The notes beneath the pieces are model-generated. The model worked only from the letters and a program-made list of their open reading frames with translations. It was not told the DNA's origin and did not search any database. A DNA stretch of 62,693 nucleotides, counting the filler, from Methanobacteriota archaeon (GTDB taxonomy: Archaea > JACRDV01), in assembly GCA_024860865.1 (NCBI GenBank). It is 5 parts of 5 records of this genome, joined end to end, with 100 filler letters (N's around TTAATTAATTAA, not from the genome) between each part and the next. Parts side by side here need not be neighbours in the genome. Positions count along the whole stretch, not along the records: positions 53,993 to 62,693 come from JACRDV010000018.1; 4 more parts are not named here. One strand, 5' to 3'. Shown piece by piece: positions 53,388 through 62,693 of the stretch (positions are counted from its first letter, which is position 1; each line of letters opens with the position of its first letter). The translations under genes and the position numbers were made by a program.

Positions 53388-53892
53388 TTGATGAAAAAAA
53401 TATTTTACATCACTTTTATGTCAAGCTTTTTCTTATCAATAGCATTAGTTTTTGCAGTTGCTCACATTTCACTTAGCCCTGACCTAGTTTATGTTCTTCC
53501 TGGAGGAACTGGGACTGTCACTGTTATAGTAACTAGCGATCCAGGTACTCCTGCAGATACAATTTGGCTGTCTCTAGTGGAACCAGTTCCAGGCATGTAT
53601 TTCTACGGTAAGCATGGTTACAATTTTAATGGTAACCCAACCTTCGATCCAAACCCGGTTTACGTACCTAGTGGAGGATCTAACACTTCCACATTAACAT
53701 TCACAGTACCTCCTGGTGCTCCGCCAGATGTTTACCGCTATAACGTCAGGGGAGAAAACTCGATATTGGTTACTAGTGATTTAGGCAAAGTAATAGTTCT
53801 TGAAGTAACAACTACTACGACCACTACAACGACAACTACTACGACCACTACAACGACAACTACTACGACCACTACAACGACAACTACTACGA
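53388..53892 (+). CDS. Secreted Ig-like surface protein with poly-Thr linker; truncated at contig end
   Basis: Signal peptide, beta-rich domain, Thr tract. Confidence 0.75.
53808..53892 (+). repeat. 24-bp tandem repeat (~3.5 copies) encoding poly-Thr
   Basis: Unit ACAACTACTACGACCACTACAACG; probable cause of the contig break. Confidence 0.9.
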
Positions 53893-53992: not shown

Positions 53993-54170
53993 CCTTGATT
54001 AATACTGTCAATGATCTCTTTTGCAAAATTTTTCATTGCTTGCTCTTAAATAAGTGGGAATTTTGTTGAAGAGCTAAAAATGCTTAGCCTAAAAAACGCA
54101 AAACTTTAGTCAAATGATTTTCTTTATATACTAAAAATATACTATAATAGTATACAAACTTAGTGTTTCT

Positions 54171-54422
54171 ATGAAGTATGACATCCATAAGATGCCGGTG
54201 AAGATAAAGATGCATGCCTCGCAGAGGATTGCAGAGCGAATCAATGGTACGATGGACATAGAAGAGAAGGTATACTTTGTTCGGCGTTTAATAAAAGAGG
54301 GCAAGGTTATCAAAGACATCCGCAAGGATGGCGAGGTAGGCATAATTAAGAAAGGCAAATATCGAGCAAAGTTCACAGTTCGAGAAGGCATTTTGTGGGT
54401 TCTAACGATCGAGGAGGGATGA
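54171..54422 (+). CDS. Putative RelE/DUF4258-like toxin
   Basis: HASQRIAER helix; basic; C-terminal WVLTI strand. Confidence 0.55.
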   Translation: MKYDIHKMPVKIKMHASQRIAERINGTMDIEEKVYFVRRLIKEGKVIKDIRKDGEVGIIKKGKYRAKFTVREGILWVLTIEEG

Positions 54423-54742
54423 ATATGAAGTGCCCGACTTGTAATGCTGATATGGTAAAAAGACAGATTGAGTGGAAGAAAGGTATCTATGTTCGAGCAG
54501 ATGTCTGCCCCAAATGTAAGGAGGAGTTCATCGATTTGGAAGAGCACGAGAGAGCTATGCGAGAGTACACGACGCAGAATATTACAAAACTAAAGAGAAA
54601 TGTCATAAAACTCGGCTCCTCGCTTGCGATAAGGATACCGAAGGATATTGAAACTTCGTTGGGCTTGAAAGAGAAGGATTCTGTCGAAATATTCAGCACG
54701 CGAGAGGGTATCGTTATTAAGCCGAAAAAAGTTAGAGTTTAG
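54395..54742 (+). CDS. Zn-ribbon + AbrB/MazE antitoxin (start probably near 54420-54426)
   Basis: CPTC..CPKC, then KLGSSLAIRIPK. Confidence 0.82.
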   Translation: MGSNDRGGMNMKCPTCNADMVKRQIEWKKGIYVRADVCPKCKEEFIDLEEHERAMREYTTQNITKLKRNVIKLGSSLAIRIPKDIETSLGLKEKDSVEIFSTREGIVIKPKKVRV

Positions 54743-54881
54743 AGGGGCAGGGCTTCTTGAATATCATGGATTGCGTTCATATCCCACGGATTTATTAATA
54801 AAAGATTAAAAACCTCTGGGCTATGTGGAGTCTTCTTCTCCAAGGCTTTGTACCATCTTGCTCAAAGCCTATTCATTGGGT

Positions 54882-55649
54882 TCAATCAAGCACTCGCTCA
54901 GAATGAGAATAGATATTCATTCTATTGCCACGAGCAAATCCGATTAAAGTTAAACCAGTTTTTTGAGCTACTTCAATCCCTGAATCTAAAGGAGCCGTTC
55001 TAGATATCACTAAAGAAATTCCAACTCTAGCCGCTTTTAAGACCATATCAGCAGGTAATCTGCCACTAGATACCAACATGCACTTTTCGAAATCAACTTT
55101 ATTTAAAGCTGCTATGCCAATAACTTTATCAATCGCAACATATCTGCTCACATCTTCAGTAAAAGCAACTACTTTACCTTTTGCAGTTACAAGCATAGCT
55201 GAGTGAACCCCACCAGTTATTTTCCAACCTTTCGATCTCTCTTGAAATTCTTTCAACATTTTAAAAACAATCTCAGGTGAAAATTTATAATTGCTCATTA
55301 TGTTTGGCGCTTGGGATGATAATTTTGCTCGCCAACCTCCAGTGCAATCAGTAGTCAAAATAAATTCCTTTTGAATTTCAAAGTCGCTAGTTTTTGTTGT
55401 TGTGATTCTAATATAGTCTCCATTCAATTCCATTTTTTCAATTTCTTCTAGTGTTTTAACGTAACCCTCGCCCAATAGATAACCAATTGCCGCTTCTTTT
55501 TCTAGTGATGGACTCATTGCTAGGTTAGCTATCAACTCTCCATTAACTAATATGCGCAATCGCCTTTCTATAGGTACAAACTCTTCTCTTTTTTCGATTT
55601 TTTTCTCGGCAGTAAGTCGTAATGCAGAAATTTTAATTGTATTTGACAT
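54882..55649 (-). CDS. fdhD: Formate dehydrogenase accessory sulfurtransferase
   Basis: TGGVHSA, EDVSR..AIDK, SGRL, GFARG. Confidence 0.92.
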   Translation of the reverse strand: MSNTIKISALRLTAEKKIEKREEFVPIERRLRILVNGELIANLAMSPSLEKEAAIGYLLGEGYVKTLEEIEKMELNGDYIRITTTKTSDFEIQKEFILTTDCTGGWRAKLSSQAPNIMSNYKFSPEIVFKMLKEFQERSKGWKITGGVHSAMLVTAKGKVVAFTEDVSRYVAIDKVIGIAALNKVDFEKCMLVSSGRLPADMVLKAARVGISLVISRTAPLDSGIEVAQKTGLTLIGFARGNRMNIYSHSERVLD

Positions 55650-55775
55650 GCTCTCTTATATGTTGTATACCTTTATTAAAATATAATTGGCACCTAAAAT
55701 AACGAATGCTCATAAAAATACTTTTTTGAAAGCGATTTTAAAATTCTTATAGAAAAGAAAAAGAAAGAAAAAAAT

Positions 55776-57044
55776 TTATTTGAGCTTTCTTCGGAGAATT
55801 GCATATATTATTACTGGTATGATTGCAATCAACGGCATCGCTGTTGGCCCACAAATCCCTTTCTTAGGTGCAGGTGGTGGCGTAGGAGCTACTTTCACAA
55901 AGCTATGGACTCCCTTTGCGTATTTTGATGCCCATTCTTTATTCTTTTCTGGATGACACGTAAGACATGCAAAGTCTACAGTGATATATCCAGTTGCATA
56001 CTCCTTGCCATCTGCAGTTTTGTAGGTAAGGTTAACATTTACGTCTGTGTTTATCCTGAAGATATGAGTTTTTACATCCCCATCAAATTTCTTTAAATCT
56101 CCAACTGCTGATTTAGTAGCTTCCGGCATGTGACAATCTGTGCATTTTACTCCTGCCTTTTGCATAGTGCTGCCATTAAATTTTGCTTTTTGAGCGCTAT
56201 GGCAAGTTTCGCATTCTTGTTTAATCCCATTAGCTGCTCCAGTTGGATTAGTTGCCCCTTTGTGAGTGCCCTTGTGGGGATTGTGGCAAGAAATGCACTG
56301 TAGAACTTTATGTGGACCTGCAAGCAACTCTGGATACTGCTCATGATGATCAATAAATCCATCCTTTGCAGGTATTTTAGATGGATCTCCCCTAACATGA
56401 CACAATCCACAGAAGGCTGAGGACTTGTTAATAACAATAGCAACTCCTTTACCTCCGCCTTTAGCGATGTGTTCGCTTCCCGGCCCATGACATGCCTCAC
56501 ATTGCACGCCTCGAAACTCCCAATCTCCAACTATTCCGAGCAGGCCCATGTGATTTGAGTCATAGCTTGAACCAGTGTTGTGACACTTAGTGCAGTCGTA
56601 TTTCTTCACTGCACCCGGCTCATAGTTGCTCCATTTTTTAGTCTCTAAGTTGTACTGGTTTGACCCATTTTTATCTCGATTTGGACCAGTCTTTGTAATT
56701 ATGAAACCGTTTTTATCTATGAACCTTGCTTTCCATCCCCATCCACCTAGCACATAGAGGATATCATTCCAAGTGTAGCCCTCGGGTAATGGAAGATCTG
56801 ACCTTATAGTCTTTGCTTCATCAGGAGTCATTAACTTATAGGGATGTCCCGATGTCTTCCAGTCATCGTACTTTTCTTTATGGCAGGTCTTACATTTCTC
56901 TGCACCCATGTAGACAGCAGTTGGATCGGGCATGACTACCGGTGTTTTTTGGTCCCCTATCACATATTCCTTCGCAGAAACTGTACCAATCGTTGCGATT
57001 ACTAAAATTGATGCGAACAAAATTATAATTCTTATATTGTTCAC
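55776..57044 (-). CDS. Exported octaheme cytochrome c with CGP-CTERM-like anchor
   Basis: 8 CxxCH motifs; signal peptide; Pro-rich linker, KGICGPT, TM helix, RRK. Confidence 0.9.
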   Translation of the reverse strand: MNNIRIIILFASILVIATIGTVSAKEYVIGDQKTPVVMPDPTAVYMGAEKCKTCHKEKYDDWKTSGHPYKLMTPDEAKTIRSDLPLPEGYTWNDILYVLGGWGWKARFIDKNGFIITKTGPNRDKNGSNQYNLETKKWSNYEPGAVKKYDCTKCHNTGSSYDSNHMGLLGIVGDWEFRGVQCEACHGPGSEHIAKGGGKGVAIVINKSSAFCGLCHVRGDPSKIPAKDGFIDHHEQYPELLAGPHKVLQCISCHNPHKGTHKGATNPTGAANGIKQECETCHSAQKAKFNGSTMQKAGVKCTDCHMPEATKSAVGDLKKFDGDVKTHIFRINTDVNVNLTYKTADGKEYATGYITVDFACLTCHPEKNKEWASKYAKGVHSFVKVAPTPPPAPKKGICGPTAMPLIAIIPVIIYAILRRKLK

Positions 57045-57513
57045 ATACTCACCTTTTTAACCCGTTAACAAAGTTACTTATAAATATGACGAATTTAAAG
57101 TCGATTTTGGTCGGAGACAAACAGCATCTGATTGAAAAATTCATTTAAGATTTTTATTTTTTTATTTTTATTTTATTACTTAGTTCTTGGTTCCAACATG
57201 CTTTGAAAAAATAGAAACAAGTTGTAGCTTGGCTTGTAGAATGAATCCTTAATTCACATTTTTGATATAGTTTTGAAAATTGTTATTCTTAAAAAGGAAT
57301 AATATTATTTTCTAAAAAGTTACACAAGAAAATTGTTTAGCACTAAAGAAAAAACTAATTTTGTGGCAATATATTTAGGTTATTAAATCACCAAAAAAAC
57401 GGCTATTTCCGTGAATACGCTCGTAAGCAAAAATAATATTTGCCACTAATATCACAATTAAAAAGTGATAAATTGTAAATTTTGTCACTATATTAATTTA
57501 AAAAAGGATAAAA

Positions 57514-58332
57514 GTGTTTAATTCAGAAGCTGTGAAGGCACTAAAAGAATTCGGACTTACTGAATATGAAGCAAAAGCTCTGATTGGTTTAGCAAGGGGT
57601 AACTCTCACTCAGCTAGCGATCTAAGCGAATTCTCAGCAGTTCCCCGCTCTAAAATTTATGAAGCTTTAAGCAAGCTTGAAGCAAGAGGTTTGTTGGAAA
57701 CCCAAAATGGCAGACCTAAAAAATTTAGAATTGTTTCTTTCGACATGGTTATTCAGAAATTAAAAGAAGAAAGAATTAAACAACTTAAAGAGAAATACTC
57801 TCGAGAAAAAATTGAACTCGAAGAAAATTATAATAAAAAAATGCATTCGCTATCTAATTCAGAAACAATAATTTCTCAAGAATTAAAAACACAACCAACA
57901 GAAGATAATAAAGTAAAGCTGTCGGATGAAGAAGCAATTTGGACATTAAAAGGCAGAGAAAATATACTGGAGCAAATCAAAAAATTGATTGGACAAACAA
58001 GTCGCGAAATCCGAATTATGCTTCCTATTAAAGAAATTTTTGAACTTAAAGATTCTTTAAAATCGATTTCAACTGATGGGATTAGACCGAAAATAATAGT
58101 TCATGAAATTTCAGATAATATAAAAGAACTTCTAAAATTTTGTGATGTTTGGCATGAAAAAAAGGCTCCTTTGAGCTGTGGCTTAATTATCATAGATAAC
58201 GAAGAATTGATTTTTGTAAGCGAATTATTTGAAACGGGCTTTAGAACTAAAAGCAAGAGTACCCTTTCTATGCTCTCGCACTTTTTTGATCATGAATGGA
58301 AGGAAGCTAATCAATTAGTATATTATTTTTAA
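57514..58332 (+). CDS. TrmB-family transcriptional regulator
   Basis: FGLTEYEAK, VPRSKIYE, RPKKF. Confidence 0.9.
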   Translation: MFNSEAVKALKEFGLTEYEAKALIGLARGNSHSASDLSEFSAVPRSKIYEALSKLEARGLLETQNGRPKKFRIVSFDMVIQKLKEERIKQLKEKYSREKIELEENYNKKMHSLSNSETIISQELKTQPTEDNKVKLSDEEAIWTLKGRENILEQIKKLIGQTSREIRIMLPIKEIFELKDSLKSISTDGIRPKIIVHEISDNIKELLKFCDVWHEKKAPLSCGLIIIDNEELIFVSELFETGFRTKSKSTLSMLSHFFDHEWKEANQLVYYF

Positions 58333-58393
58333 CCATTTATTAGAATTTCTTGTGATTATAAAAAAATTATTAAAAAACTTTCCAGCTGCTTAT

Positions 58394-58789
58394 TAGGTCG
58401 CATTCCTCACGGGTGCCTCTTCTTCCTGTGGTAGGCTGTAGGATTTTTGCTCGCTTACCCTGCCGACCTGCGCGGGTTTTGTTAACCCCCAGAGTGGCTT
58501 TTTGCGGAACACCTCTAGCCTCTTGGGGTCAAAAAAAGGAAAAAGAGGGGAGATTTTCTTTCAATCCTCACTTTTCGAGGCACGATTCTTTCGGAGGGCT
58601 TATTATCAGCCGATCCGAGGTCTAATTGCTTTGGTTTGTACACAAAAGTTAGGGCCACTTATGTCGTTTTAACGGTGTGGGTGACCCACCGAAGCGTACA
58701 TTTTATGTTACAGGAGTACACAAAAATTAGTCGCTTACAGTTTAACGATGTAGGCGACCTATCCCGAGGCTGTACTTTATGTTACAGCA
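58394..58789. ncRNA. Unidentified structured non-coding element with a tandem ~76-nt unit
   Basis: GC-rich intergenic island; several long-range stems; duplicated unit at 58638-58715 and 58716-58789. Confidence 0.55.
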
Positions 58790-58824
58790 AGAAATTTTTG
58801 ATTGCAGGCCAAATTCAATAATTT

Positions 58825-59313
58825 TTACCCAAAAACCCTTGTTAAATCAAATTTGTTTTTAAATGTTAAGGCTTTGGTTGGACATAGACCCACACATTTG
58901 GCACAAGAAATGCATTTTTTTCTGTCAAATTCCACGCTACCAAATCCGAGCAATCCATTCGGGACTTCTACAATTCCTTCTAATTTACTTATAGCAAGCT
59001 CTTGGATAAATTTGTATATCAACGCAATTTTTTCTGGAGTTTCTTCGTTTATGTTCAAGATGCTGGATAAATCAAACTCTCTTTTATGTAAATAAGCTTC
59101 TGATGGACAAGCCTCAACGCATTGCAGACAGACCGTACACTTCCTTTTCTCATATTCGATTTCCCCAAATCCATAAATGTTGGCAGGAACCGAAATAAGC
59201 TCCTTAGACTCTTTTACTGCCACTTTTTTTATTAAGTCGAACAATATTTCTCTGTTCCATTTTTTTTCCATTTTATCACTTAACTGCTTTAGGTGGAAGA
59301 GGAAGCTTTTCAT
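58825..59313 (-). CDS. 4Fe-4S ferredoxin-like protein
   Basis: CTVCLQCVEACP and CISCAKCVGLCP. Confidence 0.88.
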   Translation of the reverse strand: MKSFLFHLKQLSDKMEKKWNREILFDLIKKVAVKESKELISVPANIYGFGEIEYEKRKCTVCLQCVEACPSEAYLHKREFDLSSILNINEETPEKIALIYKFIQELAISKLEGIVEVPNGLLGFGSVEFDRKKCISCAKCVGLCPTKALTFKNKFDLTRVFG

Positions 59314-60373
59314 TTTTTCTTCGTTTTATTTCATCAGTTGCTCTATCTCTCTTGTTAATAACAAGCTTTTTAACAGGACCGAAACTAACAGCTTCTTCTA
59401 TTTGTACGTAACCTTTCTCTATTGCATTTTTTAGCAATTCTTCTCCAACTTGAGATCTTACTATTGCTGTTGACCAACCAGCAGGAGTACCCACTGAACC
59501 GACTGATATGTCTGCCAACTCCGCAGAAAAATCAGTACAAACAAGGCAGTGCTCGGGAACGAATCTTTTTACTTCACTCAATGGTATTTCGATTTTCTCA
59601 GTAGATTCAATTAGAAATTTTCCTTTCTTTATATCCATTTTTTTAACTTTTTTTAGATCCAACCTGGATCCAAAATATTCCACTAATTTCTCATATGAAA
59701 ATGCTTCCATGCAAAATAATCCAACTGTGATTATCTCAAGTTGCTTAACATTCAACAGGCCTTTTTGAAGCTTTCGAACTCCATTTATTTGGCATGGTGT
59801 ACCCACAATAGCGATTTTTCTTAATTTTAGTTCTCTAATTGTTTTTCCAAGATTTTGCACAGTGTGGCTTGCCCAATATTTTGTTCCTGCTGCATTTATT
59901 AGGTCCTCAATCGAAGTTACAACCTTTGGTATCGACCTCCATCTTTCATCTTTATCTACGGCCAAAACGCCTTCTATTCTGCCGCTTTCAAGAGCAGCGC
60001 ATAGAATAGAAGTTACAGCACCACCATCCTGTGCTTTTTGTAATATCGCTTCCTTTGTTGCTCTTAGCGGGACCACTTTTCTATAGAAGCCTAAGCTCTC
60101 ATCGCCGCGTTCTCCAAACACATCCTCAGAGCTAAGAGCTGTTGTCACTGGACAATGATCATAACAAGTTCCATTTTTACTACATTCTAGTGCTCCTTCA
60201 TCCAAAACACATTCACTGATCTTCTTGGGTTGTCCGTTAAATCCTAAATTCTTACAAAAAGCAACACATGCTCCACAACGAGTGCAAAAACCGGGGTCTA
60301 TAACCTCTGCTTTTAATTCGTCAAAACCTAAGCTCTTCCTTTTTAAGCTGATGTGCCTAATGAGCTGTTGCAC
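59276..60373 (-). CDS. Coenzyme F420 hydrogenase/dehydrogenase beta-subunit family (FrhB/FdhB/FpoF-like) with N-terminal ferredoxin
   Basis: CTRCGACVAFC, QDGGAVT, GTKY, VGTPCQ, GLFC, CLVCTDF..ADISVG. Confidence 0.9.
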   Translation of the reverse strand: MQQLIRHISLKRKSLGFDELKAEVIDPGFCTRCGACVAFCKNLGFNGQPKKISECVLDEGALECSKNGTCYDHCPVTTALSSEDVFGERGDESLGFYRKVVPLRATKEAILQKAQDGGAVTSILCAALESGRIEGVLAVDKDERWRSIPKVVTSIEDLINAAGTKYWASHTVQNLGKTIRELKLRKIAIVGTPCQINGVRKLQKGLLNVKQLEIITVGLFCMEAFSYEKLVEYFGSRLDLKKVKKMDIKKGKFLIESTEKIEIPLSEVKRFVPEHCLVCTDFSAELADISVGSVGTPAGWSTAIVRSQVGEELLKNAIEKGYVQIEEAVSFGPVKKLVINKRDRATDEIKRRKNEKLPLPPKAVK

Positions 60374-60797
60374 CTTGCTGTCTCCTCAATTTTATCGGAT
60401 TAGGACCGAGTTTCTTAGCCCTTTCATACATTTCCTTCGCGCGCTCTGCAAAAAGTTTAGATTCAGATGCTGGAATCCAAAAAATTTCCAACCTTTCTCC
60501 TCCAAATCCAATTTTGTCTAAAATTTCTTTTGCAAATTTTATCCGCTTTTCAGCTTTCAAATTGCCATCGATGTATCCGCACTGACCTGGCGCACATCCG
60601 CCAACGAAAACTGCATCAGCGCCTTCTTTAAAAGCCTTCAGCACAAACAGGATATCCATTAAGCCACTGCACGGAATTCGTATTATTCTTACATTGGTTG
60701 GATACTCCAATCTTTTGGACCCAGCTGCATCTGAAGCAGCATATGCACATTGCTCACATGCAAATCCAATAACTACTGGTTCGTACTCTCTGTCGAT
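60357..60797 (-). CDS. mvhD: MvhD/FlpD hydrogenase iron-sulfur delta subunit; no canonical start upstream of its first Cys motif
   Basis: (I)DREYEPVVIGFACEQCAYAASD...RIPCSG...GGC...C; the frame is closed upstream by TGA at 60813-60815. Confidence 0.88.
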   Translation of the reverse strand: MDREYEPVVIGFACEQCAYAASDAAGSKRLEYPTNVRIIRIPCSGLMDILFVLKAFKEGADAVFVGGCAPGQCGYIDGNLKAEKRIKFAKEILDKIGFGGERLEIFWIPASESKLFAERAKEMYERAKKLGPNPIKLRRQQGATAH

Positions 60798-62692
60798 ACT
60801 TTTTCCCCCTTTTCATAATCAGCCATTATACCTTCAATTTGTGCAAAAATTTGATCAACTGTAAAATTGCTCCTTTGAAGAGCTCCAGTTGGACAAGAAC
60901 CGCAACATGTCCCACAGCCTCTGCATTCTGCCTCAAAGACTCGAGCTTTTTTCCCCTTGAAAGTTTCTATTAATTTTATAGCACTGTATGGGCACATCTG
61001 CTCACAGATGCCGCATCCTATACAAATGTCTTCACCGATTTTTGCAATTGTTAGCGTTACTTCAATCTCCCCTTTTCCCATTAAGGACATTGCGCGAGCA
61101 GCAGCAGCACTTCCTTGCTCAACAGCCTCAGGTATATCCTTTGGACCGGCACAAGCTCCAGCTATGTAGATCCCCGTTAGAGAACTGTCTACAGGAGAGA
61201 CTTTCGGATGAAGTTCCTTGAGAAATCCATCTTCTCCGAGAGCTATGCGAAGTTTTTCTGCAAGTTTTTGCGTGCCATTAATGGGAACTAGCGCAGAAGC
61301 TAAAACTACTAAATCTGCTTCGACCTTAATCGTCTTTCCTAAAAATGTATCTTCAACTTTCACTATCAAGTTTCTATTCTTTGGATTTTCTAAAACTTGT
61401 GCAACTCTCCCTCGAACTAACTTTAATCCTCTCTCTTGTACATCCTTGTAATACTCCTCATATCCCTTAGAAAAAGCCCTAATGTCCATATAACACATGT
61501 AAATTTCTATTTTTGGATCTATATCTACAAAAATCATCTTTGCATGTTTCAGTGAAAACATGCAACAAATCTTAGAACAATATTGGAAATGATTTATGTC
61601 CCTTGAACCTACACACTGAATAAAAACTATTCTCCTAGGAAGTGAACCTTCTGGTCCATCCGATGGCCTAAAAGGTCTGCCATGACTCGGGCCCTCTGGA
61701 TCCAACATCCTTGCAAGTTGCAGTTGCGTTATAACATTTTCATATCTTCCATAGCCAAATTCTTCCTTAGCTTTTGGATCCCACTCTTCATAACCAATTG
61801 CAACAATTATCGTCCCGACTGTTATTTCAATTTCTTCTGGCTTTTGGTTGAAATCAATAGCTTTAGGATCACATACAACCTCGCACATCCCGCAATTAAT
61901 GCAGTGATCTTTATCAATTGTATAAACTTGAGGAATAGCTTGAGGATATGCTAAATAAACAGTTTTTCTTACTCCTATTCCTTGCTCAAACTCATCTGGC
62001 AATGTTACAGGGCAAACCTTAACACAATCTCCACAACTCGTGCACTTTTTCTCATCTATGTACCTAGGCTTTCTCACAAGTTTTACTTTGTATTCTCCTG
62101 CACGCCCAGTTACTTCTTGAACCTCAGTATACGCTAAAATTTGTAGGTTAGGTGCCTTTCGCAGCTCGTTAAATTTCTTGCCCAAAATACAAAGTGGACA
62201 GTCATCAGTTGGAAAAACTTTTCCTAACCGTGCCATATTGCCTCCAAGGTGGGGGAGCTTATCAATTAGATAAACTTTGTAACCAGCATTAGCGAGGTCT
62301 AAAGAGGCTTGAATTCCGGCTGGCCCACCTCCAATAACTAAAGTAGAGGGGACCACTTTAACCTTCATTTTTTCAATTGGCTCGCTCTTCTTCACTTTCT
62401 CTACTGCAGCTGCCACTAAATGCTTGGCTTTCTCTGTAGCTTTTTCTGGATCTTTATAGTGGGGCCATGAGCAATGCTCTCTAACATTTGCAACCTCATG
62501 AAAGAAAGGATTTAAACCTGCCTCGGCTGTAATTCCATGAAAAGTTTCTTCATGAAGTGTTGGAGTGCAGTGAGAAGTAACTACTCTATCTAATTTATAT
62601 TTCTTTATTGCTTCTCTGACCATATCTCTACCCGGATCAGAGCACAAAAATATATGATGATCTGCGTGAACTACCCCTGGTATCTTCTTAGC
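60773..62692 (-). CDS. hdrA: Heterodisulfide reductase subunit A; 5' end outside window
   Basis: NVREHCSW, GGGPAG, FPTDDC, QCVGSRD, YCSKICC, GPKDIP, inserted and C-terminal ferredoxin motifs. Confidence 0.96.
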   Translation of the reverse strand, partial: AKKIPGVVHADHHIFLCSDPGRDMVREAIKKYKLDRVVTSHCTPTLHEETFHGITAEAGLNPFFHEVANVREHCSWPHYKDPEKATEKAKHLVAAAVEKVKKSEPIEKMKVKVVPSTLVIGGGPAGIQASLDLANAGYKVYLIDKLPHLGGNMARLGKVFPTDDCPLCILGKKFNELRKAPNLQILAYTEVQEVTGRAGEYKVKLVRKPRYIDEKKCTSCGDCVKVCPVTLPDEFEQGIGVRKTVYLAYPQAIPQVYTIDKDHCINCGMCEVVCDPKAIDFNQKPEEIEITVGTIIVAIGYEEWDPKAKEEFGYGRYENVITQLQLARMLDPEGPSHGRPFRPSDGPEGSLPRRIVFIQCVGSRDINHFQYCSKICCMFSLKHAKMIFVDIDPKIEIYMCYMDIRAFSKGYEEYYKDVQERGLKLVRGRVAQVLENPKNRNLIVKVEDTFLGKTIKVEADLVVLASALVPINGTQKLAEKLRIALGEDGFLKELHPKVSPVDSSLTGIYIAGACAGPKDIPEAVEQGSAAAARAMSLMGKGEIEVTLTIAKIGEDICIGCGICEQMCPYSAIKLIETFKGKKARVFEAECRGCGTCCGSCPTGALQRSNFTVDQIFAQIEGIMADYEKGEKVSTESTNQ

Positions 62693-62693
62693 A

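Follow-up and report, generated by a model that had tools for sequence, protein, structure and literature searches.

Small repeats without a transposase of their own have already been described in archaea. The excerpted account of Haloquadratum walsbyi (PMC3119063) presents "small mobile repeats" (SMRs) of 80-110 bp, with one family of 80 bp, whose inverted terminal repeats are unrelated to any transposon and which reach up to 54 copies per genome. In this part of the source they are characterised as strain-specific and as inserting into other mobile elements or repeats without target duplication, and their way of moving is left unexplained even in this best-studied archaeal case. Repeat-mediated deletions between direct repeats are reported there as well, as are palindrome-associated transposable elements (PATEs), the terminal-only remnants of IS200/IS605-type elements. 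Repetitive extragenic palindromes (REPs) are 20-40 bp long, are tagged by GTAG or CGTC, and occur in tens to thousands of copies; the excerpted survey (PMC3733652) reports them from bacterial phyla, takes G.T pairs in their stems as a sign of transcription and describes the hairpins as being recognised as single-stranded DNA. Here we describe two units, U1 and U2, at 58638-58787 of a 62,693-nt stretch of DNA (the window) from the Methanobacteriota archaeon assembly GCA_024860865.1. We read them, tentatively, as two diverged copies of a ~75-nt palindromic and probably mobile repeat in a dispensable spacer, which by analogy would be a further case of a transposase-free small repeat in archaea.

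The window consists of contigs of one metagenome-assembled genome (MAG; 1.54 Mb in 160 contigs, 92% complete, GC content 0.36) joined by runs of N. The locus is on contig C67 (8701 nt, window positions 53993-62693), and the MAG is the sole genome of its phylum in the genome set searched. Both units are housed in a gap of 492 nt (58333-58824) between convergent genes, where the GC content reaches 0.54-0.57 as compared to 0.36 genome-wide. Within this gap they belong to a strain-variable non-coding block of 455 nt with a GC content of up to 0.57 (58353-58807), which is delimited by contigs of two public runs and by its composition.

The classes that the units would come closest to are the archaeal SMRs, transposable elements of the miniature inverted-repeat type (MITEs) or REPs. 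With SMR-A and SMR-B of Haloquadratum (Dyall-Smith et al. 2011, as far as excerpted) they share the archaeal host, the lack of a transposase, the size, the inverted repeats, the missing target duplication, strain-specific differences and a position in or beside other repeats. The units measure 72-76 nt, possess inverted repeats without relation to a transposon and cause no duplication, a likeness of description. As for strain-specific insertion, one-unit and two-unit alleles as well as presence and absence of the block are found, with 44 other letters where the block is missing. In contrast to the up to 54 copies given in the excerpt there are two in this MAG, and the units additionally have a long palindrome inside and a tail that is conserved and unpaired.

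Anatomy of the two units

U1 (58638-58713, + strand, 76 nt) and U2 (58716-58787, + strand, 72 nt) were delimited by repeat search and alignment and score 99.5 and 83.8 bits, respectively, with the covariance model R1. This is where the initial annotation had placed them. They are separated by GA, giving a unit spacing of 78 nt. GTACACAAAARTTAG marks the two unit starts and occurs nowhere else in the window (mean of 0.03 in 100 shuffles), and TTTATGTTACAG likewise marks only the two unit ends (shuffle expectation 0.03). The repeat search returned GTACACAAAARTTAG, TTTAACGRTGTRGGYGACC and TTTATGTTACAG as blocks common to both units, and TTTAACGGTGTGGGTGACC / TTTAACGATGTAGGCGACC as a repeat pair of 84% identity. 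Aligned with MAFFT, U1 and U2 show a mean column identity of 85% over 81 columns.

Each unit starts with a 5' block X, which is GTACACAAAAGTTAG in U1 (58638-58652, +) and GTACACAAAAATTAG in U2 (58716-58730, +). It ends with a 3' block Y, reading CCGAAGC-GTAC-ATTTTATGTTACAG in U1 (58689-58713, +) and CCGAGGC-T-GTAC-TTTATGTTACAG in U2 (58764-58787, +). The first 10 nt of X represent the left arm of a terminal inverted repeat and TTTTATGTTAC, followed by AG, the right arm. The repeats are imperfect and ~11 nt long: GTACACAAAA and the reverse complement of TTTTATGTTAC have 9 matches, 1 mismatch and 1 indel, identically in both units. The outer X/Y helix contains a conserved C.A mismatch on the + strand that would be a G.U pair on the - strand. 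The bases flanking U1 are TT/GA and those flanking U2 are GA/CA. As these differ, there is no target duplication.

The interior of each unit is a palindrome. In U1 it consists of 17-nt arms around TT (58652-58687). Eleven of the 17 pairs are Watson-Crick on either strand; the other six are 5 G.U and 1 C.A mismatch when read on the + strand, but 1 G.U and 5 mismatches on the - strand. In U2 it has 10-bp arms around the 9-nt centre GTTTAACGA (58730-58758), where 9 pairs are Watson-Crick and the tenth is G.U on the + strand and a mismatch on the - strand. The idea of modular hairpin-forming elements in the initial annotation is supported, with better pairing on the + than on the - strand. The long-range arm that was said to compete with U2 is likewise present (58394-58408 versus 58747-58761, 15 nt, 80% complementary).

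Two further structural claims are not confirmed in the form given. A TTTAACG motif had been described as a conserved loop of its own, but TTTAAC is the centre of the palindrome (CGTT-TT-AACG in U1) and hence not an independent conserved loop. The stems had been taken as different in sequence and compensated between conserved linkers, as under selection on structure. They are homologous rather than different, and 1 of the 8 alignable pairs is changed on both sides (A-U to G-C). Five of the others are invariant, one shows a one-sided change and one is a C.A mismatch in U1. A stem shuffle control gave 249/500, which with two sequences is uninformative.

Folding as RNA was evaluated against shuffled sequences. 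On the + strand U1 reaches a z-score of -0.72, 48 of 200 shuffles folding as well, and U2 one of -3.2; on the - strand the values are -2.5 and -1.7. With DNA parameters the long hairpin of U1 is not part of the minimum-energy fold (z -0.8), and U2 gives -1.8 on the + strand.

Unit number and block presence vary between close strains

Nine public runs were found, of which seven hold part of the stretch and none is on record as RNA. Contigs of four runs were compared; these are short, low-depth Logan contigs that serve as evidence of presence, not of absence, and parts of the block left uncovered by contigs of runs X7, X3 and X5 carry no weight here. In run X2 a contig of 6370 nt covers both flanks, from which it differs by 3 letters in 346 bases (~99% identity), and skips 58353-58807, where 44 other letters are in place. 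A contig of run X3, from a different study, departs from the window at 58352, the same breakpoint as in X2. A strain of ~99% identity thus does without the block, which indicates that the whole GC-rich block is dispensable.

The strain of run X7 is more distant (~97% identity, with 6 differences in 210 bases of the flank). In a contig of 126 nt from this run 58637 is joined to 58716, which leaves one unit, of the U2 type, while U1 is absent. This U2 has 2 other letters and omits one base at 58763. The joint can be placed anywhere within 10 letters common to both units, as expected from recombination between the two left ends (X blocks).

Further units were recovered outside the locus. The initial annotation had named a lack of further homologues as the outcome that would speak against it; U1-like copies are in fact present in two other flanks. 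In X7 a contig of 415 nt, and in X2 one of 151 nt, align to the window over no more than 58666/7-58713, where 4 and 6 letters, respectively, are different. These copies are ~90% identical to U1 over the 47-48 nt compared, whereas U1 and U2 differ at 10 of 49 columns in this part. U1 is hence closer to copies elsewhere than to its neighbour, and the pair is no simple local duplication. Both alignments stop exactly at 58713, the end of block Y of U1, and right after ...ACAG both contigs depart from the window into unrelated letters. These flanks are not found in this MAG. The X7 copy is preceded by an X-like start of the GTACACAA type, the X2 contig starts inside the unit. In both copies the 5' arm is different and still complementary to the 3' arm. 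The X7 copy is flanked by TG/TG, which may be chance.

Searches in other genomes returned no relatives. The scan of archaeal genomes for more units that the initial annotation had envisaged yielded only U1 and U2 when R1 was run over 149 other genomes and this one. Over 29 loci around homologues of the adjacent TrmB-family gene (24-46% identity) the best E-value of R1 was 0.41. When the core of 421 nt was compared by BLAST to 60 other archaeal genomes, matches of 23-28 nt only resulted, to a CRISPR-repeat-like piece (CRISPR: short palindromic repeats that are clustered and regularly interspaced) and a purine-rich stretch just upstream, and blastn of the block in plasmids and phages gave no match. 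Viral contigs contain no match to the three-block pattern or the Y-block pattern, and all seven matches to an 18-mer from the extra copies appear to be chance. The five matches to the three-block pattern in metagenome contigs of the Joint Genome Institute (JGI) look like chance as well and are without a hairpin. Among the genome contigs of GTDB a 24-mer from the extra copies has no match, and the X...Y pattern has 12, all by chance, all bacterial and none with TTTAAC. The JGI and GTDB scans may omit the records of this genome itself, and since the scans require exact blocks or close similarity, diverged relatives may escape.

Within the left part of the block a possible decayed third unit lies at 58392-58449. 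Here ATTAGGTCGC and AGGCTGTA are spaced by 41 nt (at 58392 and 58433), as are ATTAGTCGC and AGGCTGTA in U2 (at 58726 and 58767), the common elements being ATTAG(G)TCGC and AGGCTGTA. This spacing is a hint; Smith-Waterman scores for further decayed units in this part were below the shuffle means, and unfiltered R1 detected none.

A proposed mobile repeat and its relation to known families

The element as we picture it would consist of terminal inverted repeats of ~11 nt enclosing an internal palindrome of 10-17 bp and the conserved tail CCGARGC..GTAC. It would multiply or move as DNA, either by transposition in trans through some enzyme or by recombination; mobility is what we infer from the copies in unrelated flanks and the varying unit number. 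Insertion would proceed without target duplication and with a tendency to settle beside its own kind, and copies would be lost by recombination between the identical 10-nt left ends. Formation of the hairpin, in single-stranded DNA or in transcripts, would be a property of the element and not a sign of ligand sensing. A copy behind a gene could have side effects, and the hairpin of U2 with the subsequent U5 on the - strand may provide the first terminator-like signal behind the neighbouring hdr-type operon. The position between convergent 3' ends and the missing match to any protein or RNA family are consistent with small repeats. In particular, none of the four small open reading frames of the gap has a Pfam match at E<=1. 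If this reading holds, another transposase-free small palindromic repeat would be added, in an archaeal lineage whose phylum is represented by this one genome in the set searched.

MITEs resemble the units by being short, non-coding and intergenic, by their strong self-pairing and by presence or absence between strains. Terminal inverted repeats are found in both U1 and U2. In contrast to MITEs neither unit is flanked by a duplicated target site, none of the transposons in this genome matches the inverted repeats, and in place of many dispersed copies there are two at one locus besides the two further flanks from other runs.

REPs, REP doublets forming hairpins (REPINs) and bacterial interspersed mosaic elements (BIMEs), which are mobilised by REP-associated tyrosine transposases (RAYTs), are alike, as far as excerpted, in being imperfect palindromes behind genes with G.T pairs in the stems, in strain-variable clusters and tandem units. 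However, at 72-76 nt the units differ in size from what the survey excerpt gives, end in GTAC.../...ACAG and lack the GTAG or CGTC tag. Moreover the sole gene with a Y1_Tnp domain (on contig C7) is flanked by a different short hairpin and by no unit.

PATEs, in the parts of the source at hand, consist of two similar near-terminal palindromes in direct orientation, need no inverted terminal repeats, cause no target duplication and lose their core by deletions between direct repeats, all of which resembles the pair. The host genome also carries both TnpB and TnpA. The units are nevertheless dissimilar to the ends of the resident IS200/IS605-type copies, and as single units occur alone elsewhere the unit, not the pair, is the module.

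The genes of this type in the MAG are five TnpB matches over the cut-off (contigs C48, C29, C114, C147 and C130) and one Y1 TnpA (C7). Of the five TnpB matches three are located no farther than ~25 nt from where a contig ends, and near-identical copies (96-99%) form two pairs among them; IS200/IS605-type elements probably break the assembly.

Several observations weigh against a mobile repeat. No partner enzyme is apparent: the sequences next to the resident TnpA and TnpB genes have nothing in common with the block, and blastn of the block with the six TnpA/TnpB regions resulted in short chance matches only. The MAG contains only two copies, both at this locus, according to a two-unit nhmmer profile, exact motif counts and R1. 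The extra copies are known solely from short contigs of low depth (2-5). There is no clean empty site either, 44 unlike letters replacing the block in the X2 strain. Moreover the farther strain (97%) keeps the right part of the block and the nearer one (99%) is without it, which looks more like loss than recent insertion. A TATA-like box and a T5 run are located at the two edges of the block, as for an RNA gene. Finally, all six differences between the U1 arms are transitions, five of which keep a G.U pair on the + strand only, leaving A.C on the - strand. As judged from sequence, these transitions would fit selection on a + strand RNA and C-to-T decay in a C-rich arm equally and are undecisive. 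The X7 copy has a T opposite G on the + strand as well. With + strand G.U pairing kept in this way, a role as a transcribed RNA is conceivable.

Competing explanations

An RNA gene is the strongest of the alternatives, though we regard it as unlikely. The block 58353-58807 would then be an accessory non-coding RNA gene of ~400 nt on the + strand with U1 and U2 as paralogous hairpin modules in its 3' half, serving for protein binding or as a decoy. The RNA would extend from a promoter near 58354-58369 to the T5 run at 58795-58799 (+), a possible archaeal terminator 8 nt after U2. The putative promoter is the TATA-box-like GATTATAAAAAAATTA at the left block edge (58354-58369, +). It would set the + strand start near 58386-58392 and resembles, by eye, the TTTAAAT / TATAAA boxes 30-38 nt upstream of tRNA genes in this genome. 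High GC is a usual mark of structured RNA genes in AT-rich archaea, and the 0.54-0.57 within a genome of 0.36 would agree with it. The better pairing of both hairpins on the + strand, the six transitions in the U1 arms and the extra copies, which keep pairing via different 5' arms, point in the same direction.

However, a strain of ~99% identity lacks the block, and the number of units is not constant. Internal T5 runs occur on the + strand at about 58444-58448 and 58498-58502, and four sites of a hairpin plus T-run at 58400-58598 (+), where 0.6 are expected from shuffles, should stop archaeal RNA polymerase early. The whole block folds with z -1.9 on the + strand as compared to -3.35 on the - strand, the U1 hairpin is no better than shuffles, and the outer X/Y helix has its C.A mismatch on the + and its G.U on the - strand. 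Neither BLAST in 60 other archaeal genomes nor the search in plasmids and phages detected a homologue of the block.

Read on the - strand, the units could instead lie at the 3' terminus of the hdrA-mvhD-frhB-like-ferredoxin transcript and act as terminators in tandem or stabilise its 3' end, each hairpin being followed by a U-run. This we consider improbable. U2 ends 37 nt from the stop codon of the last operon gene (58825-59313, -), in line with the short distance to the Hdr operon stop in the initial annotation. Between the stop codon at 58825 and the U2 hairpin T-runs do not exceed 3 nt, and after the hairpin a T5 run follows at a distance of 3 nt (58722-58726, -), as read from the sequence the first downstream of the operon stop codon. 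The U1 hairpin is followed by T4 on this strand and has a fold z of -2.5 there. Small palindromic repeats behind genes are often credited with roles as terminators or 3'-end stabilisers in the excerpted survey (PMC3733652). Against this, the hairpins are worse on the - strand, with five A.C mismatches in U1, and the X7 copy reads TTGCTTG where the T-run would be expected, hence the T-run is not a feature of the family. Archaeal termination requires the T-run alone. Moreover a close strain manages without the block. The terminator scan listed no - strand site here, its loop limit of 3-8 nt excluding the 9-nt loop of U2.

It is very improbable that the block is a strain-variable RNA cassette with its own promoter and terminator in which two protein-binding hairpin modules are joined to a solitary CRISPR-type repeat. 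Such a cassette would target the CRISPR-Cas or RNA-processing machinery of the host; an RNA decoy, an anti-CRISPR, or a regulator that resembles crRNA and has a partner RNA are examples of what it could be. In that case the units would serve as functional RNA modules copied between cassettes, in a deep-branching phylum of which a single genome is known. The repeat in question is degenerate, lies at 58558-58592 (-) and ends in ...GAGGATTGAAAG (...CTCGAAAAGTGAGGATTGAAAG). It was assigned by Rfam CRISPR-DR47 with 19.5 bits and E 1.1, below the gathering score. Its last 22 nt recur with 2-3 substitutions elsewhere in this genome, in a two-repeat mini-array (C65:11764-11860) and once more at C134:331-352. 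In a genome of another archaeal family (G030) this repeat type forms a mini-array of two repeats with a period of 74 nt (L002 1505-1617).

These copies also motivate the idea of a CRISPR-related relic or cassette, which is likewise very improbable. The block would be a decayed array, or a small RNA cassette around the solitary repeat, and the unit period of ~76 nt would echo that of repeat plus spacer. The agreement of the degenerate repeat with the other repeat-like copies over its last 22 nt and the 74-nt period of the mini-arrays, near the 78-nt unit spacing, would suit this. However, the sequences that would be spacers show homology among themselves (84% over 19 nt), the reverse of an array, and the would-be 35-nt repeat (Y+X) is complete only once. 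The units contain no match to a CRISPR repeat of Rfam, the eight genes scanned (54395-62692) include no cas gene, and the MAG has no full CRISPR array.

Tandem riboswitch aptamers exist, for instance in the glycine class. The initial annotation had considered tandem ligand-binding aptamers, and indeed two similar structured modules lie side by side with conserved unpaired TTAG and CCGARGC and with stems that stay paired, but we give this reading next to no credence: no Rfam family matches the units, they are enclosed by the 3' ends of two convergent genes and neither strand has a gene downstream of them, the block is dispensable in a close strain, the number of modules varies, a single pair is compensatory, and U1-like copies that are ~90% identical over 47-48 nt are a better fit to recent copying than to independently maintained aptamers. 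At the gathering score Rfam has no match in the whole window, and at E<=10 there are five weak matches in 58000-59200, none of them in the units. Paralogous hairpins with few structure-preserving changes can mimic a tandem aptamer, and comparison with close strains is a cheap discriminator.

Known RNA families were considered as well. A tRNA or tRNA-like RNA was rejected: ARAGORN finds none in the window and none in the locus with introns allowed, and there is no tRNA match at E<=10. A loose scan for bulge-helix-bulge motifs, as in split or intron-rich tRNAs, gave many low-stringency matches and no convincing motif. In the whole MAG ARAGORN detects 25 tRNA genes only, so that many amino acids are without any. 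The RNA of the signal recognition particle is encoded elsewhere (C152, 157 bits), and archaeal RNase P RNA (RF00373) has no match at E<=10 in this 92%-complete MAG; as a close strain does without the block, it cannot be an essential RNA.

H/ACA guide RNAs are characterised by an upper stem with a kink-turn or kink-loop and by an ACA box at 14-16 nt from the pocket's top. Here ACA follows the lower stem yet is ~22 nt from the upper stem, tandem G.A motifs are missing and Rfam has no H/ACA match. The known features of C/D guide RNAs are absent on inspection. A selenocysteine insertion sequence (SECIS) was discarded too. Neither the mvhD-like frame nor the visible 639 codons of hdrA, whose 5' end is beyond the contig, contain a TGA, so that the operon genes as far as visible, lacking this codon in frame, have no need of a SECIS.

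Neighbouring genes and minor observations

To the left the gap is bounded by a gene for a TrmB-family regulator (57514-58332, +; PF01978 E 3e-18, PF11495 E 9e-9), which ends 20 nt before the block. To the right lies the last gene of the hdrA-mvhD-frhB-like-ferredoxin operon, coding for a 2x[4Fe-4S] protein (58825-59313, -). The products of this - strand operon are HdrA, an MvhD/FlpD-like protein, an FrhB/FdhB-like protein and the 2x[4Fe-4S] protein. The MvhD/FlpD-like protein has Cys rather than Sec at its CxxC site. Its gene (60357-60770, -) has a frame that is open for 20 codons upstream of the first listed start (IGFACEQCAYAAS...), without an ATG.

Elsewhere in the window, at 55776-57044 (-), a gene encodes a multihaem c-type cytochrome of 422 aa, which has MtrC/MtrF-like, c554 and c7-like matches and is equipped with a membrane anchor at its C-terminus. 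In this small archaeal genome the gene adjoins an FdhD/NarQ gene. At 53808-53892 (+) a perfect tandem repeat of 24 nt x 3.5, coding for the long poly-Thr linker with which a secreted protein ends, runs into a contig end marked by N.

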